A DNA stretch of 64,000 nucleotides from Rhynchopus sp. YZ270_cl-10 (taxonomy: Eukaryota), in the NCBI GenBank assembly GCA_964035575.1, contig OZ037833.1, positions 1,922,001-1,986,000 on the forward strand. Reading direction: 5' to 3'. Made by a program: the position numbers and the translations under genes. The notes beneath the pieces were generated by a model. The model was not told the DNA's origin. It did no database searches and was given only the letters and a program-made list of their open reading frames with translations. This document shows, piece after piece, positions 3,069 to 64,000 of the stretch (position 1 is the first letter of the stretch; every line of letters begins with the position of its first letter).

Positions 3069-4017
3069 GGGGTGGCATCAAAACAAAAAACGCGGACAAT
3101 GTCCGCGTTTTTGGGGGGGGAGGGGGGGGGTCTGAAATTCCAGAAAACGCGGACATTTTGGGGTTTTTTTTTCCTGGAAATTTTTTTTCTTTGCCGGGGT
3201 TGTACACGATTTTGACCAAAATTTATAAAAACTCGTCCATTTCGGCAAATTGACCCCACCACAGAACCAGCGGATTCAGGAAATGCAAATGCCGGTGTTT
3301 TCGGGCAAAATAAAAAATACAAGATGCCCGCGTTTTTTTTTGCAAAATGTACACGCATGGGGGGCCCTAAAACCCCTGCTACCACGTGTTTCTACAGGCA
3401 AACACTTGGACCCATTGACCTTACACGACGGGTTTTGACCAAAATCATTGTTGGCAAATTGACCCCACCACAGAAAGGACGGATTCCGGAAATGCAAATG
3501 CCGGTGTTTTTGCGCATTTTCATGGTTTCAGCATCAGAGAGAGAAAATCTGCGTTGTGGGATTTACCTTGGCCCCTTTACCTTACACTCATTTTGACCAA
3601 AACCAAGAACTTGGCCATTTCGGCAAATTGACCCCACCACAGCGCGGACAGATTCCGGAAATGCCAATTGCGGCATGTTTTGGGGCTGAAAAATTTTCAC
3701 CAGAAAATTTTTTTCAGCAGCATTTTTTGGCCGAAAATGGGCCCCACGTATTAGTGACCGGGCTCATATTTTCAAAAATTTAAGTGGTCAAAAAATTGTC
3801 CAATTTTCGAGATTGACCCCACCACTTTCTGGACGGATTCCGGAAATGCCAAAAAACTGTGTTTTGGGTCACGAATTTGCACCCTGTCACCCAAAAACCA
3901 GCAAAAAATAGGGGGAAAAAAAACCAAAAATGTCCGCGTTTTGGGGGGGGGAGGGGGGGGTCTGAAATTCCCCAAAAACGCGGACATTGTCCGCGTTTTT
4001 TGTTTTGATGCCACCCC
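3069..4017. mobile_element. Non-autonomous TIR element (~950 bp MITE)
   Basis: ~48-bp TIR GGGGTGGCATCAAAACAAAAAACGCGGACAATGTCCGCGTTTTTGGGG at 3069 with its reverse complement ending at 4017. ATT flanks both ends (3-bp TSD). Confidence 0.8.
3200..3900 (+). repeat. Dispersed repeat family R, built from CGGCAAATTGACCCCACCAC subunits
   Basis: Reverse-complement copies at ~41560-42330 and ~54480-54815. Fragments at 9065-9180, 23240-23350, 23985-24130, 24395-24560, 32500-32615 and 52925-53010. Confidence 0.85.
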
Positions 4018-14270: not shown

Positions 14271-15925
14271 TCACCGTACGACACTGCCACTCCTGCTCGC
14301 GGGAAGCGAGAGTGGTAGGGACGGTGTTGTGTCGCCCCTGATGTGTGTTGGGAGGGCGGGGAACATGTCGGACCTGGCTGGGAGTCTGGACATGAGTTTG
14401 CTGTTGATCTTCTTTTCGCTTTCGGTCATACACTGTATTGCGGGGAGGACATTTGGGGTATGAAGTGTTCCACATCAACACAAACCAAAACCGAGGGTTT
14501 TATGTTGATGGGGTAAAAAATGCAAGGGTAAAGGGGGAAAAAGCATACCTCGGGTATCCTATCTTGCTTTTCCCGAATCTGCTTCACAACCTCTGTAAGA
14601 AAGCTTTTGTCGATCTCTCTCCGTTCCGCACGCTCTCGTTGCACCTCTGCCGCCGCACTCTCGACAGACTCGCGGATGCGTTGCTTGTCCTCCAAGGCTT
14701 CTTGCTTCTCTCGGAGTTTGAGTTCTTCTTTGTGCTCAATTTGGCGGCGAAGGAAACGAATGGTACGCTGCTGCTGTCGCTCCTGTTCAGCGCGCTTCTT
14801 GGCATCTGCCTGCCGCTGGAGTTGAATGACCTGCTCTGTGACAAGAAGGGCACGCTGTTCGTCAGCCGCCGCCTTTTCTGCGAGGGAAGCGTCCATAGCC
14901 TCACCCATTTCCTTCTGGCGGGCCTGCTTTAGAGCGATTTCTGCCTGATATGATTCGCGGAGTTGTTCCTCCTTTGCAAGGCGTGCGGCGTGCTGTTGTG
15001 CGAGGCGTGCATCTAGCTTCTGTTCTTCGATAACAGCGAGATCCTTTAGTTTACGCTGTGCTTCATTGTAGTAAGCATTGCGTTTGACACCGAGAATCGC
15101 GGCTTCACGCTTTTTGGTAAGCTGTGCCTGCTCCTCGCGTCCCTGCTGCATGGCTTGCTCGTAAAGGTCTTTCTCCTGCTGGAGACGTACATCCGCTTCC
15201 TTCTGTCTGCGTCTCTGCCGCTCTCGCAGCTGCGAGTCACGCTCTTTCTTCTCCTGCACATTCACTGCCCGTATTTTCTGCTCCTTCTCCGCCTCCTCAG
15301 CCTTCCACCTCGCAAGCTCCTGTTTCTTCTCTACATGCTCCTCCTCTTCTTGCTGCCGCTGCAACGCTTCGAGGTTGCGTTTTTCCAATATCTGTTCATC
15401 CAAAGCACGACGTTGTCTGCAGGTTGCGTCATGTCTTGCCTGTTTCTCTGCGTCCTCATCCTTTAGGTAATCATCGTGCGACACTTCAACGAGGTGCGCC
15501 CATATGTCACGTTCTATGGCACAGCGTCGTCGGACGTGGTTTGGTTTGGGGCGGAGGGTGTCGGGGGGCATGGGGGTATGTGCCTGCGAGCTGTGCTCCC
15601 AGGAGGAGGTGGTGTCATCGTTGAGAAGACGTTGCAGCTCGCTGATCTGGGAGACCTGGGAGAGGGCGCTGCTGGTTCGGGTGCAGAGGGCGTCGGTGAT
15701 GCGTTGGATCGCCTTTTCGCATGCCTTTCCCTCCCGCAGTAGTACCTCAATCTCCGCCGCCACAGCGTCCTCCTCTTCGTCAGTCAAGTGTCTCCCCTCC
15801 CTCTGTTTGTGCACCTTATCCACCTGAGTAACAATCAATGGAATACACCTCCTTAAACGCTTCTCACTCTTCGGGTTCCCCGCCTCAAAATGCCTGTTAA
15901 ACGTCGGAGCAGGCGTGGAGGCCAT
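14271..15925 (-). CDS. Coiled-coil (trichohyalin/TPH-like) protein, possibly flagellar; 2 exons
   Basis: Start MASTPAPT at 15925; E/Q/R/K-rich. Intron 14433-14548 (GTATG..CAG). Last exon CMTESEKKINSKLM...VVR*. Confidence 0.8.
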
Positions 15926-16190
15926 ATTAACAAAGAGGAGGGGGAGGAGGGGGACATCTGCCAAATGAGTGATTTTTTTTTTGAAAAAATATAAAAAGCA
16001 GAGTTGAAAATACAAAGGCCCTCTCGTGAAGAAGTGTACCTTTGGTATGACCTGGCTGTACCGGAGGGGGGTGGACACCCCAACCATGCATTTCGTTTAC
16101 ATAAATAAGGTTCCCTTTTTTTGTCTACACACAATCTAAAGTTTCTAGTGGGGTGGGGAGGGACAAAATAGCCCTAAAAAAAAAATCCCT

Positions 16191-32201: not shown

Positions 32202-33689
32202 TGTACCGTTTTTTCCGGGTGTCGGTGGGCTGTAATTGGGTGTAATTGGGCTGTAACTGGGCGTAATTGGGTGAAATTGGGCAAAAATGCCGTTTTTTGC
32301 CGTTTTTTGCACTTTTGACTTGCTTTTCGGTCCCCACACCCCCAATTTTTCCCACTTATGTGCTGTTTCCCTACAAATCCATATAAAATCGAAAACGGCA
32401 ATGAAAAAGATGCCTTGGTAAGTGGTCACAGGTTGCACCTGCGCGGTTCCAATGCGAGAATGGAGGACACATGTACCGTGTCCCCCAATTGACCTGCAAG
32501 AAATGGCGTAAACCCGCTGCTTTTAAACACCGGCATTTGCATTTTCGGAATCCGTCCGGCCAGTGGTGGGGTCAATTTGACGAAATGGACAAGTTTTCGT
32601 TTTTGGTCAATTTCCTCACAGTACACAGTACACAGTACACAGTACACAGTACACAGTACACAGTACACAGTACACAGTACACAGTACACAGTACACAGTA
32701 CACAGTACACAGTACACAGTACACAGTACACAGTACACAGTACACAGTACACAGTACACAGTACACAGTACACAGTACACAGTACACAGTACACAGTACA
32801 CAGTACACAGTACACAGTACACAGTACACAGTACACAGTACACAGTACACAGTACACAGTACACAGTACACAGTACACAGTACACAGTACACAGTACACA
32901 GTACACAGTACACAGTACACAGTACACAGTACACAGTACACAGTACACAGTACACAGTACACAAACCACCTGATTGTCAACTTCCGAAAACCATCACCTG
33001 TACCGATGCACAAACTCCACGGTCAAAAATAGTTTATTTTTGGAGTGAACGCCAGTGGTCTGAAGAGTGATCTGACCATATTCTCCAGGTATAACAAATG
33101 CTCAAACAATGCATTGTCGAAGGAATTTTGTACTTTTGACCACCACAGATTACATGTGTTTTTACCGGTTTTTTTATGTGATGTGTGCTGGGAAGCATGC
33201 CACCAGTGTTACCATTTTACAAGGTAAAAATGACTATGTACGTACGTATGTGAGGAAGAAGGCTGAGTGGGCGTGTAGTGCCACAAAATATATGGGAGGC
33301 ATGCAGTCCCCTGTCCGGTTACCAAAACCCGCCCGTCATAGGCGTTCCCACTTTTCGGTGCCACACCCGAAAAGCGGGTGTCATCACACCCTCTAGTTGA
33401 GTATCCCGTTTGACCCGCTCAGAGAGAGCTGGACCCCACCGTGTGAGCAAGCAAAACAGGTCACCCCCTGGTAAGCCCCCCTCAAAAACACCTGAGTTGT
33501 ACTAGTGGTGTGACTGGGTGTAATTGGTTGTAATTGGGTGTAATTGGGTGTAATTGGGCTGTAATTGGGCGTAATTGGGCAAAATTGGGCTGTACTTGGG
33601 TATAATTGGGTATAATTGGGCATAATTGACCCGAAGTGGGTCCAGATGGGCTCTGTTGGGTCCGGTTGGGTGGGTGAAAAAACGGTACA
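32202..33689. mobile_element. ~1.49-kb TIR insertion with demonstrable target-site duplication
   Basis: TIR TGTACCGTTTTTTC / GAAAAAACGGTACA with TAATA on both sides. The uninterrupted empty-site sequence is at 30433-30500. Subterminal TAATTGGGYG 10-mers. Confidence 0.85.
32617..32963. repeat. (CACAGTA)n 7-bp satellite, ~49 copies
   Basis: Perfect tandem array. Confidence 0.98.
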
Positions 33690-41343: not shown

Positions 41344-42526
41344 GTTTTCTAATATGGTTCTGAGTGAATGATGTGAACAGGATGGGGAGTCGGGTGGTAT
41401 TATAGCAGGGGATGTGTAGGATGTTTTGAAGAGAAAAAAGAGGGAAAAAGGGGGGAGATTTTGATATTTTTTGAATATCACGACAGGAGTGGGGGTGGGA
41501 GTGGGAGGAGGAGCAGTGGTCGCGCTAATTATGGGAAAAAATGGGGGAAAAATGGATTTCGGGTACGGAAAAACGTTCCTTGAAAAGGTTAGCTGGGGAG
41601 GCCCGGAAACCCCGTTTTGTGGCATTTCCGGGCCAATCCCGGCTTGTGGTGGGGTATATACGGAAAAATGGACAAAATTTTAGTGACTTAAATTTTCGCA
41701 AAATATGAACCCATACCCGTAAACAAGGGTCATTTTCAGGAAAATTCGGAAAATTCCGAGATTTGGAAGCAATTTTTCTCCTGAAAATCAGTGGGTTTTC
41801 AGCCCCAAAACATACCGCGATTGGAATTTCCGGAATCCGTCCGCGCTGTGGTGGGGTCACTTTGCCGAAATGGCCAATTTTTTGGTTTTGGTCAAAATCC
41901 ATGTGGGTAAAGAGGGCCAATGTAAATCCCACAACCAGATTTTCTCTCCCTGATCCTGACGTCTTGCAACATGAAAATGCGCGAAAACACCGGCATTTGC
42001 ATTTCCGGAATTCGTCCGTTCTGTGGTGGGGTCAATTTGCCGAAATGGACAAGTTCTTGGTTTTGGTCAAAACCCGTCAGTGTAAGGTAAAGGGGGCAAG
42101 TGTTTGCCTGTAGAAACTGGAAGGGAACAGGCAGCGCCGCAGGCGCACGGTAACCAACTTTTTTTTTTTTTTTCCTTTTCTTTTTTCTCCTCTTTCTTTT
42201 GACTTTCCGAGCCAATTGCGTTCCACGGCGGGGTCACATGTATATGCAAGTCCACTATGTGGTGGTCTTACTCAACAATATTAGAACTTCTGGTTTCTTA
42301 ATGAAATCCCCGTACTGCAAAAAAAAAACGTTCCTACCAAAACCCCCAAAAATCCCGGGATGAGGGATGGACTTTAGCGCGAGCTCTGAGGAGGAGGGGG
42401 GGGGGTTTTTTTTTTGTGTGAAATCTAATTTATTTGAGATCTAATACGACAAAAAAAAAAAGAATCTATAATTTTGATGTTTTGGTACATCATTTTAACA
42501 ATGGTTTTTTTTGGTAATATTTATTT

Positions 42527-43707: not shown

Positions 43708-43843
43708 TTTTTTCGGGGGGGGGGGTGTCGTTGTGATACACGACGGGACCCAGTAGTGAAAAATAAAAATGACAAGTGAAAGGTGACTAGTGAACCACTT
43801 GTCATGACAAGTGATTGACTTGTCATTTCACTTATAAAATGAC

Positions 43844-43997
43844 GCTTGTCGCTTGTCGCTTGTCGCTTGTCGCTTGTCGCTTGTCGCTTGTCGCTTGTCG
43901 CTTGTCGCTTGTCGCTTGTCGCTTGTCGCTTGTCGCTTGTCGCTTGTCGCTTGTCGCTTGTCGCTTGTCGCTTGTCGCTTGTCGCTTGTCGCTTGTC
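43844..43997. repeat. (GCTTGTC)n 7-bp satellite, ~22 copies
   Basis: Perfect tandem array. Confidence 0.97.
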
Positions 43998-44079
43998 ACT
44001 GGGTACTGTCGTGTAAGGAGGAAGGGAAGAAAACTCGAAGAGAATAATAGAATAGATGAGTGTGGTGGAAGAGAGGTTG

Positions 44080-45297: not shown

Positions 45298-46364
45298 TTA
45301 CTTCAGGCCAGTCTTCTCTGCGGCGGCCTTCTTGGCGGCCTCCTTGCGTGCAACACGTGCAAGACGGATACCCACGAACTGTGTGTTGTAGTTTTGTGGC
45401 ATGTGTTAAAAGTTACTTGTGTCTCTTGTCTGTAAGTTTCGTGGCACTGAAGCATTCATCAACTTCTGCAAAAAAAATGGCACAGATCCACTGCTAATCC
45501 ATGTGCGCACATGACTAGGATCAACCAGGTTTCTTGTCACTCTAATCGGGGGATTGCTCCCCTGAGATCAGTGATCAAAGAGCCTAATGACGGTTGATAT
45601 ATTCCGGCTTCTGTGAAGAAGCCTTTAAAATCACCCCATTCGGAGACGTTTCTCCATTTTTTGTGTTGATTTTTTTCCCCCAACAAAGACATTACCTTCT
45701 CGTCACGGCTCTTGGCACGGAGGTAGTTGTAGATGAGACGGCTCTTCTCGTCCTTGGAGACGTCACGGGGGGCCTCGTGGGAGTCGGCCTTGACAAGGGG
45801 GAGCACCTGGGTGTGGGTGTTCTGGGTCACAGCCTTGAGCTGCTCGGAGGAGGCCTCGGCGACGGCTCCCTTGGTGGCCTTGACACCTCCCTTGAGGGGG
45901 AAGAGGATGAGCTTGCTCAGGTACTCCTTCAGGCGGAGGGTGTTCTTGGCGAGCCCCTCGTCGGAGTGGTTGCGGCGACGGTGGTCCACGGCAACTCCAA
46001 TGGTGCGTGCGTACCTCGAGGTCACGCCACAGGCCTTCAGCTCCTCAAGGGTGAATCTGTGGGTGCAGTGTGTAGAGCGAAGATAGCCACATTGTGAAAC
46101 AAAAAGTAAATAAAAAATGACATACCCCTTTCCTGCGCGGGACTTCATGTTGTACCTCTGGGTGCATGACTGCACAACGGGGCGAAGGGCTCCTCCCGAC
46201 GGGCGGGGGAAGATGGCCTTAGCCTTCTGCTGACGCCTCACACGGCGGGCCTTCTTCTGGTGTGCCTGCTGGAAGAAGGTCTTGATGTGTCCCTTCTGGG
46301 AGGACTCGGGGTTCCAGTGCTTGCGGAAGTGGTTACGGGGGATGGCCTGGTTGTGCTTCGGCAT
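45298..46364 (-). CDS. RPL13: 60S ribosomal protein eL13; 3 exons
   Basis: Motifs HFRKHW, PRP..LRPVV, RYNMKSRAGKGFTLEELK, VDHRRRN and LKEYLSKLILFP. Exons 46364-46126, 46056-45696 and 45378-45298. Confidence 0.97.
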
Positions 46365-46789
46365 TTTAAAAAAGGGGTTGTGTGGGTGTGTTGAGAAGAG
46401 AAGCTGGACGTTGATAGGGTTTTTTGAGGAAGTAGCAAAGAGGAGGGGTATTGGTATTTGAAAAGGGAGGAGGTGCGATATATTTTGAGAGGACCGTATG
46501 GCCGTCCGCGAAATGAAGAAAAATCAGGTTTAATCTAAATGAGAAATGGAACTGACGGTAGGGTCAGTTATCTTTGTTAATATTATTCAGTGAGAAAAAG
46601 AGAAGTTGAAAGTGCAAAACACCTCACCGTACATCGAATGCATGGGGGGTGGTTCTCCGCGGGGGTTTGCAAACCCCAGAGAGCATTTTTCAACATAAAA
46701 AAAAAAGGATTGATAAGATGCTAAGTCTTGCTTAGTCACCTCAAAAAAAGATCTAAGGAGCCTCAAAACCCCGAATTTTTTTTGGCATT

Positions 46790-47845
46790 TTATTTGCTTT
46801 TTTTTGCAAAGCAAAGCGTAGTCTGCACCGAGCGTTTTGGCGGGGCTTTCTTCACGGAGGTGGTAGGAGCTTTGGGGAGGATCTTCTTCTTTTCCATCAT
46901 GTTCCGGATATCCATTTGACCTAGTGAGCCGAGCATGGTGGGTTTGCTTTGCTTCTTCGTTTCAGCCCTTCCGAAAACAGGACGACGTACTGAACGACCA
47001 CTTGCCTTTCTTTTCCCCGCAAGCTTTTGCTTCACTGCCCATTTATCTAAGGTAAGCTGGTTCGCGTCAGCGATAGACGCACCATCAAGAAACTTTGCTT
47101 CTACTTCGTCGAGCATTTTTTGGTATTCTTTGTACAGAATTGTTACCTCCGATTCGGCAACGGTTTTGTACTTCACAAGAAGCCCACGAATTGAATGGAT
47201 CAATGCCAGCTTCCAATGGTGCAGTTTATGATACGCCATCGACGCCTCACGACACCCTGGCCCTACAGCAAGCAACCCATCATGCGCCACAGCGCAGGTT
47301 CCATCCTCCTTCGAGATATCCCTAATATACTTCTCAATGTCCCCAGGCTTATTGTTCCATAAATGCCGCGCACTGTAGGTAATACCCGATAGCTTCATGA
47401 CATAGCTCGCATGCTTCCCGCACGCAGAACAGGTAAAATCCTTTTCGTTTTTTGCGTCCACCCGGGTCACATCCATTCTACTATACTTATCCAACGCCTG
47501 AACAAAAGACTGCTTCCATACAGTACTATCACAGAGCAAATCTCTACGCACCTTTACCTTTTCCTCTACCCTATTACAGCAATGTTGTATTTCTTCTAGA
47601 TCGGCATCTTCAATACGTGATTTGCATAGAACCCGGCGGATTTCGGTAAGATAAATTGAAAAAATCTGTTTTTCGTTTAAAAAATGCAACGATGCGTCAG
47701 AAGCAGAAGAAGACGAAGAAGATGACGAAGACGAGGAGGAGGAGGAGGAGGAAGAAGAAGAGGAGGAGGAAGAAGAGGAAGTGGTGTTCTCCTGCGGTGC
47801 TATCGGCTCCGCAACATCCTCTGCACAGAGGTCGATCACATTCAT
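46790..47845 (-). CDS. DUF4211 / CCDC82-like protein (351 aa)
   Basis: STVWKQSFVQAL, CSACG..ASYVMKLSGITY and VGPGC..YHKLHHWK fit the DUF4211 pattern; poly-Ser N-terminus. Confidence 0.7.
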   Translation of the reverse strand: MNVIDLCAEDVAEPIAPQENTTSSSSSSSSSSSSSSSSSSSSSSSSSASDASLHFLNEKQIFSIYLTEIRRVLCKSRIEDADLEEIQHCCNRVEEKVKVRRDLLCDSTVWKQSFVQALDKYSRMDVTRVDAKNEKDFTCSACGKHASYVMKLSGITYSARHLWNNKPGDIEKYIRDISKEDGTCAVAHDGLLAVGPGCREASMAYHKLHHWKLALIHSIRGLLVKYKTVAESEVTILYKEYQKMLDEVEAKFLDGASIADANQLTLDKWAVKQKLAGKRKASGRSVRRPVFGRAETKKQSKPTMLGSLGQMDIRNMMEKKKILPKAPTTSVKKAPPKRSVQTTLCFAKKSK

Positions 47846-47949
47846 TGTTTTTTTGTTGGTCTGATTTTTTTTGTGATTTTTAAAAAACTTTAGATATTCA
47901 AGAGGGACACAGACAGACCTTTAAAAGAGTTGAATGAAGGAGGTCTTTT

Positions 47950-51300: not shown

Positions 51301-52429
51301 GGCTCCCGCGACTTCGCTGTCTGCTCCTCCTCTTTTGCACCCCCCGTCTGTTGGGGCCGCCGCAGAGGCGCGATGTTCTTAATGGGCGCCTTGCCTAAAC
51401 GTCCCCAAATCTGGATAAGTTCACTGCCAGGGCGCGATGTTCCTTCTTTGAATTCACTGCCAGCGCGGATCGGTAAACACGGGTTGCATCTCGTGTCGAA
51501 AACGTTGCACCGCCAGACCTCGCGACGAATTGGTCATGCTCAGCCATGTGTCAGGATTCAGGTGCTCTCCTGCTTCCTGATCGCTCGGTGTTCTGAATGG
51601 GGCGCGATGTTCCTCGTTGGAATTCACTGCCAGCGCTCGGTGTTTATAATGGGCGCGATGTTCCTTATTGGAATTCACTGCCAGCGCTCGGTGTACTGAA
51701 ATGGGGCGCGATGTTCCTCGTAGGAATTCACTGCCGATGGGGCGCGATGTTCCTTGTTGGAATTCACTGCCAGCGCTCGGTGTTTATAATGGGCGCGATG
51801 TTCCTTGTAGGAATTCACTGCCAGCGCTCGATGTACTGAAATGGGGCGCGATGTTCCTCGTAGGAATTCACTGCCGATGGGGCGCGATGTTCCTTGTTGG
51901 AATTCACTGCCGGGGCGCGATGTTCCTCGTTGGAATTCACTGCCAGCGCTCGGTGTTTATAATGGGCGCGATGTTCCTTGTAGGAATTCACTGCCAGCGC
52001 TCGGTGTACTGAATGGGGCGCGATGTTCCTCGTTGGAATTCACAGCCGGGACGTGGTCGTCCGTCACGGAATTCACTGCCATTTGGGGCGCGATGTTCCT
52101 TGTTGGAATTCACTGCCGGGGCGCGATGTTCCAGGGTGGAAGTCACGGGCGGGGCGCGATGTTCCGGCCCGTTCCCATTGCTGGTTAGGGCGGAATTCGT
52201 CGCCAAACTCTGCTCAATAGCACGCGTGACAAATCCCTCCAGCCCCGCAGGCCAGGCATCACCCTCCTTCACTGTCGGCACCGCAAGGTTCGGCGGGGAA
52301 AATCGCCATCGTCTCCTCCACAGGCGCCTTTCCCTTCTTGCCGCTCTTCGGTGTCTTAGTCTACCCCATTGTGAAAAAATAAGCGGATAAACTGGATAAA
52401 CAATGAAAAACAACTTTTTCGTTTATCGC
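48339..52429. mobile_element. Decayed tyrosine-recombinase (DIRS-order, TATE/VIPER-like) retroelement
   Basis: 32-bp direct repeats at 48339-48370 and 52398-52429. RNase H-like PHIFIKELLAA and IDNSVVVAISKGHGS on + (~49363-49520, frameshifted). YR box II-like SRGALQEIVRTGYTLEDICEMSRHETDAFFLHY on - (~50685-50790). Confidence 0.65.
51598..52165. repeat. Compound minisatellite, core GGGCGCGATGTTCCTYGTWGGAATTCACTGCC
   Basis: More than ten cores joined by a few re-used linkers (AGCGCTCGGTGTTTATAAT, AGCGCTCGRTGTACTGAAAT, GAT). Confidence 0.9.
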
Positions 52430-53546: not shown

Positions 53547-55328
53547 TAACCCTTCGCGTATGGAGATATTCAGGTTGTAAAACCCAATTTATCAAATAGT
53601 TTAGTTTTTGGGGTTCGCGGGAATATTCTAATAGGGACTCAATTGTGAAAAACAGATGGCAAAAAAAGAGAAAAAAACGATACGGACAAACAGAAACAAA
53701 ACTGGGTAAATAAACTACATTTTTTAATCTTTAAAACCCTCAGGGCCTTCAACGTGTCGAAGTTAAGCCTTAACTTCGACAACTTTTTTTTTTTGGCTTT
53801 TTTTTTTTGTCGAAGTTCGACAAATCTAAAAAAAAAAATGGGATTTTGGCAAAATCCTTTTATCTCTGACCGAGTTGCAGGGTAGTCCACGGGAGAAACT
53901 CGGTTCAGGGTTTTAACTTTAACATTCTCCTGTGATCCACTGTGACCATTTGGACAGAGCTCGTAGAACCCAACGAGGAGTGAGCCAGGCAAAAGTAGCG
54001 TACCGTGCGCCTGCGGCGCAAGCAGGCATCCCACCCTTCCCATGACATAGTTTGGCTGTAAATAAAGCGCCATGGTATGCGCAATGTTTGAAACGTTGCG
54101 TACCGTGGCTTCGCCAGAGGGACCTTTGTTGTTATAAATGTACTGAGCTTACTGATAAGACAGGTGTGATACCCACTACGGCTTGTGGGTCACCAGTGGC
54201 TACAAAGCTGCCAATGCTGCTTGTGTTGAAATACACGTGTGTGGGACAGGCGGAGTTTTTTGGCTGACCGAGTTTTCAAAAATGACCAAAACTTGTATAC
54301 ACCCCTGAGAGCTTCTCCCTGTGATTTGCTGCACCCGCGCGCGCGAAGCGCGCGCGGGCTCGGGAGGTCTATTTTTTTCAGGGTATTTCCTAAATCGGGG
54401 TCCCAAAATCTCAAAATCCGGAATCGGGTGCAAAAAAAGCGCGCTGAGCAACGTTAGGGTTTTTTGTGCAGAAAACTGAGTTATGGTGCATTTCCGAGCC
54501 AATCCCGGCTTGTGGTGGGGTCACTTTGCCGAAATGGCCAAGTTCTTGGTGTTGGTCAAAATGAGTGTAAGGTAAAGGGGACCAGGTAAATCCCACAACC
54601 CAGATTTTCTCTCCCTGATCCTGAAAACATGAAAATACCCGAAAACACCGGCATTTGCATTTTCGGAATCCGCCCGTTCTGTGGTGGGGTCAATTTGCCG
54701 AAATGGACAAGTCCTTGGTTTTGGTCAAAACCCGTCAGTGTAAGGTAAAGGGGGCAAGTGTTTGCCTGTAGGAACTGGTAGGAACAGGCAGCGCCGCAGG
54801 CGCACGGTACCCAACATCGGTGAAAATAAAAATTCCCGAAAACTGCTTTATTTGAATGATTGGAGCGATCCAGAACAGCGAACATACTTTTTTCGGGAAA
54901 ATACCAAAAAATAGGCACTTTAAATACAGCTACCCTAACATAAAAAAAAGGGGAAAATGTGCCCGCCGCAGGCGGAATTTTTTTTTGGCCTGTGAACTTT
55001 TTTTCCGGACTTTTTTGCGTTATTTTGCAAGATCGGGGCTCCGAGGTTCGGAATATTTTTTCCTCGGACATTTTTACCTCACCCTGTGCTCCTTCCCACG
55101 ACTACTCTCCCTTTGCAAAAAAACCGCGGAACACCTGAAAACCCCCCTTGCAAAAAAAGCGCGGAACTTTTTCTGAAAAAATCTCGGGAGACGGGTAGTG
55201 GATTTAGGAAATACCCTGATTTTTTTTTTTTTACTTCGACAAAACTGTGGACAGACTTTGTCAATGGTTGAAGGCCCTGAAAACCCTCATGAGACATCCA
55301 CCGTATCCTTCTCGCAAGCACCTAAGCG

Positions 55329-58300
55329 TCAAACCCGAAGACAGCCAACAAAAAGATGCGTATTTTCGTTTGTAATGGTGTGGAAGACACTGAGGTTGGC
55401 TTGGACTATGTCACCGAGTTTGGTTTCAGCTGTGATGGGCTGGCCTTGTTTAGAGAAGACTTGGCGGTTTGCGGTGACACACCCGGACTGGACGAAACGC
55501 TTGAGATATCCGTCGTGCTTGTCTGAGACTTCATCGGGCATGAGGATTTTGATGTTCTTGTCGATTACGTGCTCCTCGTTGAAGCCAAATGTTTCCTGTG
55601 CGGCTGCGTTCATAGAGAGAATGACGCCGTGCTCATTGATGGTGATCAACGGTGAAAGGCTGACTTTAGACACCATTGACGCAAGCCCAACTGCGACCTG
55701 CCGCTGTGCCACTGTGCGGTAGTCTTCCACGAACGCAAAGAAGAGGTGCTGTGAATCCGTGATATACTCAAAGACACGCAGCTTCACGGGGAAGATGTCC
55801 CCCGATTTGTGCTTTGCATCAACAACACGCACCTGGTCGACGACACGCTTTACACCATCCTCAAGGTACCTTCTGATGTAGGAGTCATGGTTCACTGCCG
55901 TCTGCGGGGGTGTGAACATTGCAACGTTCTGCCCTATGGACTCTTCGGCTGTGTACCCAAGGAGGGCCTCCGTCGCATCGTTCATGCTGGTGATCTTCCC
56001 GGACACATCGATCGAAACAATGGCCACAGATGTCAACGCAATAGACCCCGTTGCCACAGCAATTTCGTTGAGCTGCTGGACCTGCACATTGTCGCGGAGG
56101 TACCCCATGTACAGAGATTCGTCCTGCAGAACGACCTCATTAATGTGCGACTCAAACACAACAGACTCGCCAGACTTGCTTCGCCCCTCAAGGATCCGGG
56201 CTGTGTCGATGACGTGCTTCGCCCCCGTCACCTTGTACGACGCAAGGTAGCCATCGTGCTTCTCTGCAATAGCAGGCGGCATCACTAACTTAATGTTCTG
56301 CCCAATGAGCTCCTGCTTTGTGTACCCAAAGATCTTGCACGCAGCAGGGTTGAACTGCTGAATAATACCGACGTCATTTATGCTGCAGAACGGCAAAGGC
56401 GCGTTGTCCAAGACGCTGTTGTTCAGTTTCTCCTTCCGCTGAGACACCTTCATCTCGGTGTTGTCACTGATGAATCCGAAGAAGATGGTTTTTCCATCCT
56501 CGTCCAGAGCGTCTCTCAGGTAGAGTGTGACGGGTACAGTGGTCTCTGTGCCGTCTTCGTTGCGGCGTATCCCTGTGAGCTCCTTGCTTGTGTCGACCAC
56601 CCGTTTCAAGCGTGTGCGGAGGTAGCGCTCGACGTAGCCGTCGTGGTTCTCACGTATCCCGGGGGGTGTGATCATGCGGACGTTCTTCCCCAAGGCTTGC
56701 TCTTCTGTGTAGCCAAAGCAGGCTTCCGAGGCAGGGTTCCACATCTTGATGAGGCAGTCGCTGCCAATCATGATGAGAGGCGACTTGCTCATGTTGGTGA
56801 TCGACTCCGCAATTTGGAAGTTGCGCTCGTTCTCAGAATCTTTGGACGCATCGACGATGTTCCCCACGAAGACCCTGTCCGTGGCGGTGATGACAGCCTC
56901 GCGGATGGAGATGTCTATAGGCACGGTTTTGTTTGCCTTAGTCACACCCATGACACGCAGGGTCTTGCCAATGACAGTCTTTACCTTGGTCTTATTGTAG
57001 CGTGTCAGGTAGCCGTCGTGCTGGACAGCGACGTTCGGGGGCATGACAACTTTGATATTCTTCCCTAGCATCTCCTTCTCCGAGTACCCGAAGAGCTCCT
57101 CCCCGTTCTTCCAGAGCTCGATGGTCCCAGTCTGCGTGATGGTCACTGCTGTGGTGGTGGACAGCGCCAGCGTTGTCACTAAGAGGTTCACCTTGACCAT
57201 GCGCTCCGCCTGCTTGGCGACGGACATCGCGTACGCTACGTACACGACCTTGCCGTGCTTGAGCACCTCCTTTGCCGAGAGCTGCACAGGGAGCACACTC
57301 CCGTCCTTGTGGCGTGCGTCCAGGAGGCGGCAGGTGTCGAGCACGCGTTTCTGGCGCTTCTTCAGGTAGTTCGCGAGGTAGCCGTCGTGCTTCACTGCAG
57401 TGGACTCCACCATAAGCATCTTGACGTTCTGCCCCTGGGTTTCCTCTCCGGTATACCCCCATAGTGTGCGCGCTGCCTGGTTGAAGACCTGTATCGTGCC
57501 AATCTTGTCGATGATGATGATGGGCTCGTGCGAGCGTTCGACGATGGATTCGCCTATAGATTTGTGGACGAGGGCTTTGCGTTCCTCTGTAACGTCGCGA
57601 GCGAAGCCGAGGAAGAGCGACACTCCGTTGGACGGCACCTCGTGCACCCGCAGCTCTAGTCCGAAGATCTCGCCGTTGAGGCGCTGGCCTTTGACGATGG
57701 TTGTTGCGTCGATGACTGTCTTCACACCAAGCTTTCTGTACTGCCTCAGGTAGCCGTCGTGTTTCTCCGCATACTCCGGAGGCATGAGGCTGGTCACGTT
57801 CCTGGTGGGTGTGTTTGATATCAGTGGGCAATTCCTGGATGAATATATAATGTGGCCTGTGTGGAGTGTGCATACTTTCCAATCGCTTCCAACGCCGGCA
57901 TCCCCCAGTAGGTTTCTGCTGCGCGGTTGAAACGCAGGACGGTGCCCTTGTTGTCTATCGCAATCTGCGCCACCGTGCAGAGGTTTGAGAGTGTCTCGGA
58001 CACTGCCTGTTCACTCTCGCGAAGCATCGTGCTTTCCATGTCTTGGATGAAGCCGACAAATATCGGATCCTGTGAGGAGCATGTCATGAGGCACGAGGCA
58101 TGTGGATGGGTGTGTAAAGGGACATACTTCATCTGCTTCGCGGATCTCTTCAACACGGAGTTCGACTGTCAGCACTTTGCCTTGCTTTGTGACACAGCTC
58201 AGCCGGATCGAGCGGCCAATGACCTGAAGGGGTGCAGGGGTGGATGGAAGGGCAACCATTTTTTTAACCATACAGTTTTGTGTCCCGTCTTTCGGTAGGC

Positions 58301-61300
58301 CATGAGGTATTCGTCGTGGCGGACTGCGACCTTGGGAAGCATGAACATCTGTTGTGGTGTGGTTGTTTGTCTCAAAAGCAAAGCTGGTCAAGATTTTCGT
58401 GTTCAGTCACTCATATCTTACCAGGCTGTTGCCGATATACGAATTATCAGCCTTTTTTTCCCACTGGGAACTCATACCTTTACGTTTTGCCCCAGAATCT
58501 CGGACTCTTCGTACTTCGTGAGCTTCGCGAAGGAGCTGTTCACTTCTCTGACCTTTCCGAAGGAGTCTAGCTTGATGATAGCCTCGGGCGAGTGCAGGAA
58601 GACGGACTCTGCCAGCGCCTTGTCGTGCTCCATCTTATCCTTCTCCGAGAGGTCCTCGGCGTATCCAATGTAGAGCCTGATGCCGTCGTTCATCACCTCC
58701 TTCACCCACAGCGAAAGAAGCACATTTGTTCCGTCGGACCTCCGCCCCTCAACAATCCGCTTCGTGTCAATCACCTTCTTGATCCCCGACCGCAGATACC
58801 GTGATAGGTATCCATCATGCAGCGGCTCATGCTCGTCTGAGACAAGCATCTTAATGTTTTTCCCAATAACGTCACGTTTGTCGTACTTCCACACCCGCTC
58901 TGCAGACTGCGAAATCGTTTGAATAGTCCCCTCCTGATCCATAGTAATAATAGGTATCGTGATAGATTTGTTGATCTGTGCGTTCAACAGTGTAATCCAC
59001 TCCAGCTGTTTTTCTTCTTCTATGTCCCGCAGGTAGCCAATGTAATGCGCGACCCCGGTGATCTTCGAGACAAGCTCCTCCACAGCGAGGCTGATGTGGA
59101 AGATGGACCCGTCAGAGCGCTTTGCGGTGGAGTTTATTGTCTTTCCGATGACCTTCTTTACTCTGGTCTGCTGGTAGGTTTGCAGGTAGCCGTCGTGCTT
59201 GGAGGAGAGGTAGGGTGGGAGCAGCATTTTGACGTTGTGCCCGATGACGTCCTCAGTGGTGTACTTGAATACCCTGACTGCAGCGGGGTTGAAGGTTGTG
59301 ACGATGCCCTTGTCTGTTATCGATATGATCGGTGCTGGCGAGTGTTCAATGTTCTTCGTCTGGATGTCGATCATCAGCTTGGCCACCTCTTGTCGCAGAT
59401 CGCGTATGAACGCAAGGAAGACAAATTCATCCGACGGGAGGGTCACCTCCTTCACCTCAAGGGAGATGGGGAACTCGCCGTCCGTCGCATGCACACCAAC
59501 CACCTCCCGAGATAGGTCAATGACATTACGGATGCCTGTCTGCAGGTAGTTCGACAAATACATGTCGTGCTTTGAAGCCACGTCAGGCGGCATCAGAGCG
59601 TTCACACTCTGGTTCAAAATCTTCTCCGAAGAGATACCGAACAATTCCTCTGCAGAATCGGAAAACGACAGCACATTCCCAACATTGTCAATGGACACAA
59701 TCGGAATAGGGTTGAGGTTTGAAATCGTGGTATGTATCAAGTGCTCGTACTCAACAATGAAATCGCCAGTTCGATCGTGAATGTATCCCAGGAACAGCGA
59801 AGAGGAACCGAACTCCTTAAGACGCACCTCCTTGATGTTGAGTACAACCGGGAGGACCTGGCCGTTCTTCTTCATGGCCAGAACGTTCGTCTCTGCATCA
59901 ATGACTTTCTTGACACCGGTCTTCAAGTACGCCGCCACGTAGCCGTCGTGGTGCTTGGCGTGTTCCTCTGTCATGAGCATGTTGATGTTCTGGCCCACCG
60001 CTTCGTCAGAGGAATACCCAAAGCAGCGCTCTGCTGCACGGTTGAACACAGTGATCAACGCCAACGTGTCGATGCATATCATCGGCACAGAGGACATCTG
60101 CTGGATGGTTGCATTGAGCTTGCGGGCCGCCTCCAACTCGAAGGCCTTCGCCAAATCCTTTATGGTGGAGATGAAGACAGGCTCTTCACCGGGCCTGCTG
60201 TGCTCACGCACAGAGATCTCCATTGGGAAGCGAGTTCCGTCCTTGCGGTAGCCCGGCACTCTTCTGACGGACCCAATCACCTTTTTGATACCTGTTCGCA
60301 TGTATGATTGAAGCCAGCCGGAGTGGTGCTTTGCGTATTCAGGTGGCATGAGCAGTTTAACGTTCGATCCGACCACTTCAGACTGCTGCCACCCAAAGAC
60401 ACACTCGCCACCCTGCGTGAACTTTATAACAGATCCTGTGCTGGTGATGGCAATGATGGGGACGGCAGAGAGCTCGACGATCCACTCACTGATTACCTCC
60501 ATCGGGTTGTCGTCACGCACCTTCCCGAGGTCAAGGTACTCTTGGATGACAGGAACGGTTACTCGCACCTCGCTTGGAATCATCTTCAACATGATGTTCG
60601 TCCCTGTGTCTTGGTGCAGCAGCTCCAATATCACAGGACGGAACACAAAAATCAGCTCAGCAAAGACGACCACAACAGTAAACACGATAACGGCGATGAA
60701 GTAGGTAAACCATTCGTCATTGCTATCCGACGCGTCTGTATGGAAATGAGACGTACTCTGCTCAAGGGCGTAGACGAGGGTGTCGACCGACTTCTCCATT
60801 GACGCATAATTCGACTGCGCAACTGCTGCTGACTTAGTCTCTATCATGGACGATGCTGTTGCGAGGAACACACCTGTGGCAATGTCGACACCTTTTTCTA
60901 GTTGCTTTTGGGACTCCATAATTTCGACAGGTGTTTTGCATATTGGGAAGTCGAAGGCTTTGTTTGAGAAGAGCTCCGTTGGGTTGCTTAGACGGTTTAT
61001 GTCGCCGCTCTCGCGGTCCTTTCCAAAGTAGAGGTTACCCACGTTGTGCTCTGCGTCACGTATCGTCTTGTAGAGGCGGTGCTTCTCGATGTACTTTCGT
61101 TGGCCGTCCGTGTTAGAGAACTTCACAGCGCTTACCTGGGCATCTGCCACGCCTGCCTCACGCTTCGAAGAAAAGAAGATAGTGTGGGCATCCGTGTTAA
61201 AGTTGACCAGGGACGTGACCTGCAGAGCGTATAGTGCCGAAAACAAAACCCCAACCACCAACACACACACCTTCCCACGAAGCGAGATCGTCGACCCCGT

Positions 61301-64000
61301 CTCAGAGCCCACACTCGACCCAAAGTGGCGGCTGCTCTCAAGGTAGTGGTTAAACAGCAAAATGAACATCACCACCAAAATCGCAATCGCCCCCACACTG
61401 ACCCCTAGCCATGTGTACGACAAGGACAGGAGGTGGTCGCCCGCATCCTCGCTGATCTTCAGGTACTCATCATAGTTGGACGCCGTCTTCCGAAGAAGAT
61501 ACTGCAGCTCTTCGGTCAAAGTGGAGAAGTGGTGCGAGGAGATAATATTGCGTGCCAGTTTCTTCTGAAGCTTGCTTGACATGGCCTTGTCTTTCGGGGT
61601 GGTTGTGTACCACGCCTGGTCGGGGTAGTTCACCACGAAGCTCTCTGCACCCTCCTCCTTCTTGAAGTCCCAGAACAGCCCCGAGAGCTCGCCGTACGCA
61701 TTCTCGTCGACTTCCTTCTCCTCGGACCACACCTTGAGGCAAATCGATATGGAGCAGAGGCTGTGCAGGTGTGAGAAGAGCCTTTTCACTTCGGCAGCTT
61801 CTTTGTCCTGCAGCACAGCGTCAATGGTTGCACCGAAGTCGTCTTGGGTGGCCAGTTTCCAGAAGAGGATGTACTGTTGGTAGTCGTATGTGGCAACGAA
61901 GATGCGGGTGGCTTCGATCATGCTGCTGGCAACATCTTTCAGGTGTGTCTGCTGTTCGAAGAACAATTCCAGGCGATGCATATCTGAAGAACCGATTTCC
62001 TCCTTGATATCAAGGCACGTATGCAGGCAGAATGCCACCACACCTAGCAAGATGAGCATCCCTATGGCATAGGACTGCTTCCACAGAACAGGGTTCCGGA
62101 TAAGCCCTGTGAAGCTCAGGATGGACGCGACTATGAACAATGCACACACACAAATGCCCGCAACACAGGACAACTCCCCGTAGCTTGAAAAACTTTGAAG
62201 CTCCCTCCCTTCTGTGATATCGTGGCCAAACTTCTTCATTGCCGCCTGAAACTTCCTCGTCAGTTCCCCATTCACAAGCTCTTGTATGAGCACCTCTTTA
62301 TCGTGGTGGCTCATGGAAAGGTCGTCATGCGTGCTCGACAGCTTGGCCAGGGTGGGGTGCAGCAATGCATCAATGGTGTTTGGGTTCCTCCACTCCAATC
62401 CGTTGAGGACATGCTGCAGAGTGATGGCGGTGCCGTGCACGGACGCTGCAATGCGCAGGGCCACTGCCTCGTACCTGCTTATCTCATCCGAAAGGTCGAT
62501 CAGGTCCTGAAAGCTTGCCACCACAAAGCTTTCCGCCCCTAGCTCCAAGATGTCGTGCTTCAAGCCGGTCATGTCCATGTGGACAGTGTGGTTGCTGTAG
62601 TGCACCAAATAGAGCGGGTTCGCTGTCTGCACGAAGGAAAGCACTTCCTTCCGTGTGTCGCGGTGTCGGTCGGCACACTCGCTCAATATTTTGAATGCCC
62701 TGATTTCGCGGATCTGCGGCTTCCATGTCGTGTCCACAAACACGAAGAACATGCCCGACAGGCCCACCAACACAAACGCACAAAATACGAGGATACCAGA
62801 GTTGACGGCAGAAGGCATGTCGATCTCAAGTTCAACCTCCTTCTCGATGCTGTACTGCTCGGCATCGCTGTTCATGAGCTCAACACCCTCCTGCTCTAAT
62901 ACGTCTTCGGAGCTGTCCGAATCAGACTCGCTCTTCTTTGAGGAGACTTGGCTGTTTTGTTCGGTGTATTTGTCGCTCTTTTGGTCGAGAAGGTGCAGCT
63001 TGCCTTTTGTCATGCGGTTCAATTCGTTAAGCTCCGGCTTCGGGATGAGAGTAAAGAGATTCAGTGCCTCCAGCTTTGCCTGGTCAATCTCTTCGAAGCT
63101 TGTGACAAGCAGCACGTACACCAGCAGAATGATGAGAAGCCCCACGGAGTACACGAAGGTTGTCGTCAAGATGGTTGTTCTGAAGTACTCTTCAGACTCC
63201 TCAAGACGGAGGGAGAGTGAGTGGTCGTACATCTCCACCAGGGCGGACCCTGCGTTCTCCTCAACCCATTTGTAAGCGAGCAGCTGTATGCCGGACCCGT
63301 TCGTGCCTAGCGTGCGCATCACGGCGGCAAACTCGTAGCCCAGGTTAAAGAGCCCAAAGCGCTCCACAGAGGACGTCCCGACGTTGAGAGGATGTGGCAT
63401 GAGTGCGCTTGCGGTCTTGTCTTCCATGTATGCGACGTGCGGCTTGTAGGTGCTCACTCCATCACCTAAACAAAGGTAGTCGTGGTGCGCCTCAAAGTCA
63501 GACACAATACTGTCCACAGCGCGCAGGCGGTCCTCAATACGCGTGTGGTCAAACGTCGTCGGCTCCAAGAACGAATCACGGAAAACAAAGTGAGAACACT
63601 CCGGGACCTGCGCACACGCCTGCAAAGAGTGGTACGCTGCCTGCTGGCTCAACGAACGTGCCGCACCAACAGAACGCATTCCCTTGATGATCGCGTCGCA
63701 CTCCTTAACATGTCTCATCTGGAACAAGGACTGCCCTGCCAAGAACAACAAAAACACAAAGACTGTCCCAACCACCGTGGTACGCAGTTTGCGCAGCTGT
63801 GTTTCGTGCAGAGAGTTCGAGAATGACGCTGTCTCCGACGTGGGCTGGAACTTTGTCGTCTTCTTGAAGTCTGCGTCCTGCCCGACATGGTCACGCAGGC
63901 TGGACGCGTTCTCTTCGTCGTTCATGACCTGCTCCAAGAAGAGGGCGTACGAAAGCAGCACGCTGTCGTCGGCAGTTGCGTCCAGCACCCTCCTGAACTG
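55329..64000 (-). CDS. Giant multi-pass membrane protein (TmcB-like region) ending in 13 tandem FixL-type PAS domains; 5' end outside window
   Basis: Exons >=63988-58478, 58348-58274, 58223-58128, 58069-57876 and 57801-55329, joined in frame by four GTATG..CAG introns. About 8 hydrophobic helices. Repeated motif GxNVxxLMPxxxxxxHDGYLxxYxxTGxKxVI. Confidence 0.92.

Follow-up and report, generated by a model that had tools for sequence, protein, structure and literature searches.

The window analysed here is a 64,000-nucleotide stretch of the Rhynchopus sp. YZ270_cl-10 genome (assembly GCA_964035575.1, contig OZ037833.1, positions 1,922,001 to 1,986,000 of the forward strand). Its main feature is an intron-containing, minus-strand gene for a membrane protein that ends in 13 tandem PAS domains of the type known from the rhizobial sensor FixL. 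All positions below are those of the window. Five exons join into one frame of 2,786 residues, running from the window edge (64000, where it is still open) to a stop codon at 55331-55329. The four introns, of the form GTATG...YAG, all fall inside PAS6 and PAS7: intron 1 at 58477-58349 (129 nt, GTATG...CAG), intron 2 at 58273-58224 (50 nt), intron 3 at 58127-58070 (58 nt) and intron 4 at 57875-57802 (74 nt). The upstream part of the protein was retrieved through the database entry P0001, which represents the same gene, continues 5′ beyond the window and adds 590 residues for a total of 3,376. In the full protein an N-terminal membrane block is followed by a TPR_TmcB domain, four predicted extracellular four-helix bundles and the PAS array. 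The long coding exon that is still open at the window edge (58478..64000) covers the last part of TPR_TmcB, the eight membrane helices and their four loops, all of PAS1-5 and the first part of PAS6.

Each repeat carries a His motif, and we call distal the residue at the position of FixL Arg220. In order along the protein, all on the minus strand, the repeats are PAS1 (60152..60475; HSGW, distal Arg), PAS2 (59771..60100; HDGY, Thr), PAS3 (59396..59719; HDMY, Arg), PAS4 (59021..59347; HDGY, Ile), PAS5 (58649..58969; HDGY, Arg), PAS6 (58037..58597, split by introns 1-3; HDEY, Ile), PAS7 (57591..57985, split by intron 4; HDGY, Thr), PAS8 (57219..57539; HDGY, Arg), PAS9 (56847..57167; HDGY, Leu), PAS10 (56460..56795; HDGY, Lys), PAS11 (56088..56408; HDGY, Arg), PAS12 (55719..56039; HDSY, Arg) and PAS13 with the stop codon (55329..55667; HDGY, a longer FG loop without distal Arg). 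The His motifs are spaced 123-129 residues apart in the spliced protein. Pfam PAS matches the two long exons with expectation values (E) of 6.5e-58 and 1e-54, and a profile made from the protein's own repeats finds 13 domains, the last of which ends at the final residue with nothing beyond. Pairwise identity among the repeats is 22-43% (mean 33%), and the His is the sole invariant column. An earlier sequence-only reading of this DNA had proposed 13 strongly diverged FixL-type repeats with this series of motifs at 55329..60500; the spliced frame and the domain count bear it out, with PAS1 starting at 60475 and the stop ending at 55329.

The gene model was checked against relatives and public data. 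All four splice junctions are gap-free in the alignment shown, which is with two transcript-derived orthologues, P0005 (Lacrimia lanifica) and P0007; P0005 stops at the same column as the window protein and P0007 four residues further on. Contigs from four public sequencing runs, one of which may be the window's own source, cover 30 of 30 bins with no substitution or indel in the gene; these contigs showed no exon joints, and the introns are supported by the protein alignment. We rejected a recent duplication or an assembly artefact, given the low identity among repeats and their position-matching to orthologues: the best match of a repeat is the repeat at the same position for 12 of 13 with P0005 and 10 of 13 with the Diplonema papillatum orthologue P0159. 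Against the 41 other array proteins 0-5 of 13 best matches agree in position, too few to trace position-wise orthology with distant paralogues. At 57023 and 57359, loose ends of other contigs (3-4 runs) continue like further PAS repeats when read by hand in reverse complement, which suggests array-type paralogues in the same samples.

The chain ends with the array, as the sequence-only reading had held. No histidine kinase (HisKA plus HATPase) or other kinase family appeared in the Pfam scan of the protein, the stop follows PAS13 directly, and the orthologues end there too. We rejected both an additional exon further downstream and an output gene next to this one: orthologues end at repeat 13, high-copy repeat sequence sets in within about 110 bases past the stop, and a Pfam scan of 13 open reading frames, 10 of which lie downstream (48.8-55.1 kb), gave no match. 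Over the high-copy dispersed repeats just 3′ of the gene, at 55000-55220, contig depth in two runs reaches thousands, where the gene itself has about 90-100; related copies lie at about 3226-3855, 32524-32625, 41809-42085 and 54473-54743, in both orientations.

The best sequence matches in the PDB are FixL heme domains (E 3.8e-21), and PAS5 aligns to one of them without gaps (E 1.2e-17). A structure model covering PAS1-5 (mean predicted local distance difference test score, pLDDT, 84) superposes its repeats on BjFixL (1drm, 1xj4, 2vv6) with a root-mean-square deviation (rmsd) of 0.9-1.0 Å and a target-normalised template-modelling score of 0.93-0.96, the superposition that the sequence-only reading had put forward as a check. 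By gap-free alignment the conserved His lies at the FixL proximal-ligand position on the F-alpha helix in 13 of 13 repeats, again as proposed. PMC10765370 gives His200 as the proximal iron ligand, describes a distal face lined in SmFixL by Ile209, Leu230 and Val232, and has FixL Arg220 hydrogen-bonding bound O2. At the equivalents of Ile215, Leu236 and Ile238 the window repeats have a hydrophobic residue in 13, 12 and 13 of 13 cases, with one Ala at the Ile238 position. The distal Arg, in the FG loop, is present in six repeats (1, 3, 5, 8, 11 and 12), and one more has Lys there. On this evidence each repeat would very probably hold a His-ligated heme. That the repeats instead lack heme, the His being structural or binding another ligand or metal, we consider very improbable: most family repeats have Asp at the Gly217 position and His214 is not conserved among them, but the proximal His is kept at 100% in the thirteen-repeat proteins described below, where no structural Gly, Asn or Tyr exceeds 96%. 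The hydrophobic pocket and, in part of the repeats, the distal Arg persist, and the agreement in fold is within about 1 Å.

Absence of the distal Arg follows position. It is missing at repeat 4 in five of the five closest orthologues (the window protein counted) and at repeats 6, 7 and 13 in three of three complete close orthologues; as these orthologues share ancestry, this is one pattern and not a set of independent events. Read from the residues, it would fit position-specific tuning. If O2 is the physiological ligand, which we think probable, Arg-less repeats would bind it more weakly and the chain would respond over a wide range. The sequence-only reading had offered graded sensing or buffering as functions, and the first has gained some support, because only six of the 13 repeats have the Arg. 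A tree of 179 repeats over 108 columns proved too weak to name a bacterial donor.

To see how constant the array is, we searched with the membrane region only, which cannot favour any PAS number, and obtained 94 proteins. These and the other initial matches include 23 proteins with exactly 13 repeats. A PAS-region search, which favours long arrays, was added afterwards, two duplicates were dropped, and the number rose to 46, with C-terminal tails of 0-69 residues. Among the 65 proteins with a full N-terminus and two or more PAS domains, 35 have 13 repeats and none has more than 13 detected; among the remaining 30 are gene models that break off at an intron, incomplete transcripts and degenerate arrays. 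The His occurs in 598 of 598 repeats of the 46 thirteen-repeat proteins and is their only fully conserved column, while the distal Arg occurs in 461 of these 598. The gap between domains is 17 residues at 520 of 540 junctions (45 of the 46 proteins); with the same profile, kinase- or cyclase-linked arrays show gaps that are mostly multiples of 7 (14, 21, 28, 35, 49). The structure model shows the linkers between repeats as helices, each about 19 residues long. For specialists in PAS domains it would come as a surprise that proteins sharing no more than about 35% identity keep both the number of repeats, 13, and the linker length constant.

Such regularity could mean that the main role of the array is to set a distance, as a spacer or tether made of 13 rigidly joined units in which heme is secondary or modulating. 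The 17-residue linker speaks for this, as does the absence of any full-scaffold array with more than 13 detected repeats. In addition, of 29 arrays in which fewer repeats were detected, eight nevertheless have a span of 12.9-13.2 units, and six of these eight have lost part of their His. Yet 51 of 64 array proteins keep the His in every repeat, the span of four degenerate arrays is 15-17 units, there are 11 repeats in the form from the euglenid Entosiphon, and no C-terminal anchoring motif was seen; we hold a role mainly as ruler to be distinctly unlikely. Degenerate arrays in which the His is lost from several repeats while length stays at roughly 13 units form two groups (P0049, P0052, P0077 and P0095; P0057, P0058, P0129 and P0130), and serve as natural controls for ruler against sensor. 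The claim that the His is invariant thus stands for the 13 window repeats and for the 46 thirteen-repeat proteins and fails family-wide, 13 of 64 array proteins having lost some.

The many equivalent His sites and the missing output domain would also suit a membrane-tethered store or sink for O2, nitric oxide or heme that is not itself a source of signal. A buffer, however, needs neither a constant count nor a constant linker, nor a 1,750-residue receptor scaffold with cyclase-bearing paralogues, and FixL-type hemes bind O2 weakly. We therefore rate this as improbable, and the buffering half of the sequence-only reading, leaving the fixed count and linker unexplained, fares worse than the sensing half.

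Named sources of the arrays are the diplonemids Lacrimia, Namystynia, Artemidia and Diplonema, the prokinetoplastids Papus and Apiculatamorpha and the euglenid Entosiphon, with the diplonemids Hemistasia and Sulcionema presumably to be added from label prefixes. No trypanosomatid is among the named matches, most matches carrying no species name. Two arrays labelled Colponema (P0122 and P0133) were rejected as a second lineage and are probably prey contamination: their repeats interleave with euglenozoan ones, and several repeats of P0122 pair position by position with P0017. Colponema feeds on kinetoplastids. Two related forms were seen beside the arrays. P0121 (3,016 residues) has 18 FixL-type repeats, all with His and distal Arg and with a period-3 linker pattern; the TmcB N-terminus is absent and no output domain was detected. 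A well-supported clade (P0018, P0048, P0071, P0075, P0076 and P0084-P0086) has the same scaffold and ends in a single PAS, with the His and the equivalents of Arg206 and Arg220; it is nearer to FixL in these residues than the arrays are and groups with the cyclase forms.

The scaffold identifies the protein as a member of the TmcB family of membrane proteins. P0001 scores 50.1 bits against TPR_TmcB (PF25474), above the family cut-off of 27; the C-terminal end of this domain that lies in the window (63887..64000, minus strand) gives a weak match (E 0.047). At least four hydrophobic segments precede the TPR and eight follow it, in agreement with the membrane anchoring proposed by the sequence-only reading. 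The eight helices after the TPR frame four loops in the pattern A-B-B′-A′ (hhalign probability 95.8 for A/A′ and 99.4 for B/B′, against 1.7-49.8 for the other four pairings). A structure model of the membrane region (predicted template-modelling score, pTM, 0.73) shows helical bundles. On the minus strand, module A (63050..63811) comprises a membrane helix, a predicted four-helix bundle, a second membrane helix and an LFTLIP-type helix-Pro motif; it matches the PcaY sensor (Z 13.0, rmsd 2.6, 139 residues aligned). An acidic Ser-rich loop, presumed cytosolic, follows at 62822..62980 (residues 341-393, pLDDT below 50). Modules B and B′ (61325..62818) are two homologous units of membrane helix, four-helix bundle and membrane helix, whose best structural match is the NIT domain of NasR (Z 16.9, rmsd 4.4, 266 aligned), and module A′ (60584..61300), the last such unit, matches the sensor domain of Adeh_2942 (Z 12.7, rmsd 2.0, 139 aligned). 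HK9 is matched at Z 13.2, and identity in these four bundle matches is 7-11%. Bacterial receptor sensor domains are matched at Z 11-13, designed proteins and cytoskeletal bundles appear among the matches at much the same Z, and a Foldseek search with the membrane region returned nothing at E ≤ 0.001. Extracellular sensor-like domains are thus a lead only, drawn from models.

Between the last membrane helix and PAS1 lies a helical linker (60476..60643, minus strand) that aligns among array, cyclase and single-PAS paralogues. The array is placed in the cytosol because paralogues have a cyclase at that position. When a tree is drawn from the N-terminal region, the window protein groups most closely with P0002, next with the L. 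lanifica protein and after that with DIPPA_04458, the direct orthologue in D. papillatum (supports 0.95-1.00). By this placement the host is likely a diplonemid, in agreement with the protist host that the sequence-only reading had assumed.

What the array might act on is indicated by the paralogues. The 93 proteins with a full TmcB N-terminus divide into 64 with an array at the C-terminal end, 16 with a class III cyclase, eight with a single PAS and five in which no C-terminal domain was detected; PAS and cyclase never occur together on one of them (0 of 93). The window protein has no class III cyclase domain (PF00211); in the paralogues that domain sits exactly at the array position, behind the same post-membrane linker, which makes it a candidate output in trans. 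The array form and the cyclase form are both present in six named species. Of 25 scaffold-borne cyclases all have the adenylyl-type Lys/Asp pair, 11 have only the metal-Asp pair, 11 only the Asn/Arg pair and three both; we assume for these residues their usual catalytic roles. The 22 half-site cyclases must then pair to be complete, and it is therefore suggested that the scaffolds assemble with paralogues. Elsewhere, three unrelated proteins, P0126, P0127 and P0132, fuse 7-9 PAS repeats bearing His and Arg to a complete adenylyl-type cyclase; one of these fusions is from the diatom Conticribra weissflogii. PMC12750705 describes Dictyostelium tmcB as a regulator of the cyclic AMP (cAMP) pathway with slow, late induction by hypoxia.

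We favour, at a little under an even chance, a reading from sequence in which the window protein would be a non-catalytic, heme- and O2-sensing TmcB-family subunit that tunes paralogous membrane adenylyl cyclases. Ligand-driven changes would pass through the helical linkers to the membrane-proximal helix, and pairing with cyclase paralogues through the shared membrane scaffold would alter cAMP; taken from end to end, this route is tentative, and we would not quite bet on it. The sequence-only reading was right about a membrane-anchored FixL-type array and had missed the TmcB family, the four predicted extracellular bundles and the cyclase paralogues. A heme or O2 sensor that signals through other partners, bound by TPR_TmcB or by the array, is an unlikely alternative, with these points in its favour: a TPR domain is present, TmcB proteins of other lineages (P0148, P0151) have internal PAS domains without a cyclase, and the array type is both the most numerous type recovered and spread over several old paralogue clades. 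The conserved linker behind the membrane, the complementary half-site cyclases and the fusions of PAS arrays to cyclases elsewhere point instead to cAMP.

Several observations count against the reading that we favour. Seven of the 13 repeats lack the distal Arg, and of 585 repeats 350 have Asp at the position of Gly217, where repeats of kinase-linked matches have Gly in 37 of 39, so that ligand behaviour may differ from that of FixL. The His losses in 13 of 64 array proteins (635 of 681 repeats retain it) include six arrays that keep a span of 12.9-13.2 units, which means that length can persist without heme. The PAS1-5 model leaves the relative orientation of the repeats unfixed (pTM 0.35), and the distal repeats lie far from the membrane. 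Bundle Z scores, NasR excepted, are near the helical-bundle background stated by the tool (about 13). Both half-site cyclase types were not seen in one species among the few species looked up.

Compared with known systems, the protein shares with rhizobial FixL (BjFixL, SmFixL) the PAS sequence and fold, the proximal His, the hydrophobic distal pocket and, in some repeats, the distal Arg. FixL, however, joins one heme PAS to a histidine kinase, whereas the window protein sets 13 of them on a TmcB scaffold of eukaryotic type and lacks the kinase. Scores against the NCBIfam equivalog for FixL, NF041777, stay below its cut-off of 850 for P0001 (356), for the last exon (425) and for the full D. 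papillatum orthologue P0159 (816), where the matches cover the PAS part of the profile only and the window protein was scanned in parts. One family member bears the NCBI name 'Sensor protein FixL [Diplonema papillatum]', which accordingly expresses similarity only, and the window protein is not FixL; it would work like a heme-PAS sensor of the FixL/DosP kind. The phosphodiesterase DosP of Escherichia coli has a related heme PAS (E about 1e-10 to 1e-6) and couples O2 to cyclic-nucleotide turnover. DosP carries its enzyme in cis and uses a distal Met ligand, unlike the window protein, which has no enzyme and Met at the distal position in none of 13 repeats. With TmcB/TmcC (PF25474; Dictyostelium tiny macrocysts B) it shares a TPR_TmcB domain above cut-off and a multi-pass membrane architecture, although Dictyostelium TmcB itself was not among the named matches; the non-euglenozoan P0148 and P0151 have four internal PAS domains after the TPR, where the window protein has none, its 13 being at the C-terminus.

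Split class III cyclases are known from the C1 and C2 halves of mammalian membrane adenylyl cyclases and from the alpha and beta chains of soluble guanylate cyclase, and the paralogues divide their catalytic residues in the same complementary way. Soluble guanylate cyclase is further alike in its control by a heme domain; that domain is H-NOX and not PAS, and the window chain, having no cyclase, would act from a separate chain. Tandem FixL-type PAS domains with output in cis (three repeats in Shewanella hybrid kinases, 7-9 in diatom-type cyclases) resemble the array in their His- and Arg-bearing repeats and differ from it in two ways: their chain includes the enzyme, and most of their linkers have a length divisible by 7, against 17 in the window-protein family. 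Kinase-less membrane proteins with a few FixL-like PAS domains were reportedly described from Chlamydomonas as FXL1-9 (Murthy et al., FEBS Lett, 2012), two of which are said to bind heme through a His and to bind O2. Our literature search, whose scope was sources other than subscription journals and genome-paper supplements, found no description of a 13-repeat terminal array on a TmcB scaffold. Kinase-less FixL-like proteins and short tandem arrays are thus known parts; what would be new is a terminal array fixed at 13 repeats and borne by a scaffold that split cyclases also use.

Other genes and repeats of the window were noted in passing. On the minus strand lie an intron-containing gene for ribosomal protein L13e (45537-46523; Pfam E 2e-54), a DUF4211 protein (46790-47920; E 2e-12), a trichohyalin-plectin-homology protein (14426-16096; E 3e-5) and a weak cupin-like match (1-852; E 0.01). 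Tandem arrays at 32533-33054, 43798-44028 and 51395-52163 comprise two 7-base microsatellites and a degenerate array of an 18/33-base unit. An 18-base motif occurs in seven copies within two mismatches, all on the plus strand (1731, 8071, 19718, 28523, 31579, 34089 and 35643), with 0 expected in 100 shuffles; most copies come after a run rich in A, and the sequence behind the motif is loosely similar among them. With the window genes on the minus strand, the motif may belong to introns or to trans-splicing as a conserved element, or it may mark where a short mobile element ends.

Among marine protists the diplonemids are abundant, and D. papillatum is genetically manipulable. bioRxiv 10.1101/2025.04.02.646759 states that protists lack the HIF (hypoxia-inducible factor) network. 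Oxygen sensing in protists is largely open, and this family offers a concrete candidate O2 receptor with a candidate cAMP output. In its most far-reaching form, which we regard as rather unlikely, the proposal is of an ancient O2-receptor system common to free-living euglenozoans, in which a rigid chain of 13 hemes, Arg-tuned repeat by repeat and fixed in length, would form a separate subunit acting on split (C1-like plus C2-like) membrane adenylyl cyclases. If that were true, the array would serve both as a graded oxygen gauge and as a spacer, and the oxygen-guided behaviour of diplonemids and bodonid-like kinetoplastids would probably rest on it.

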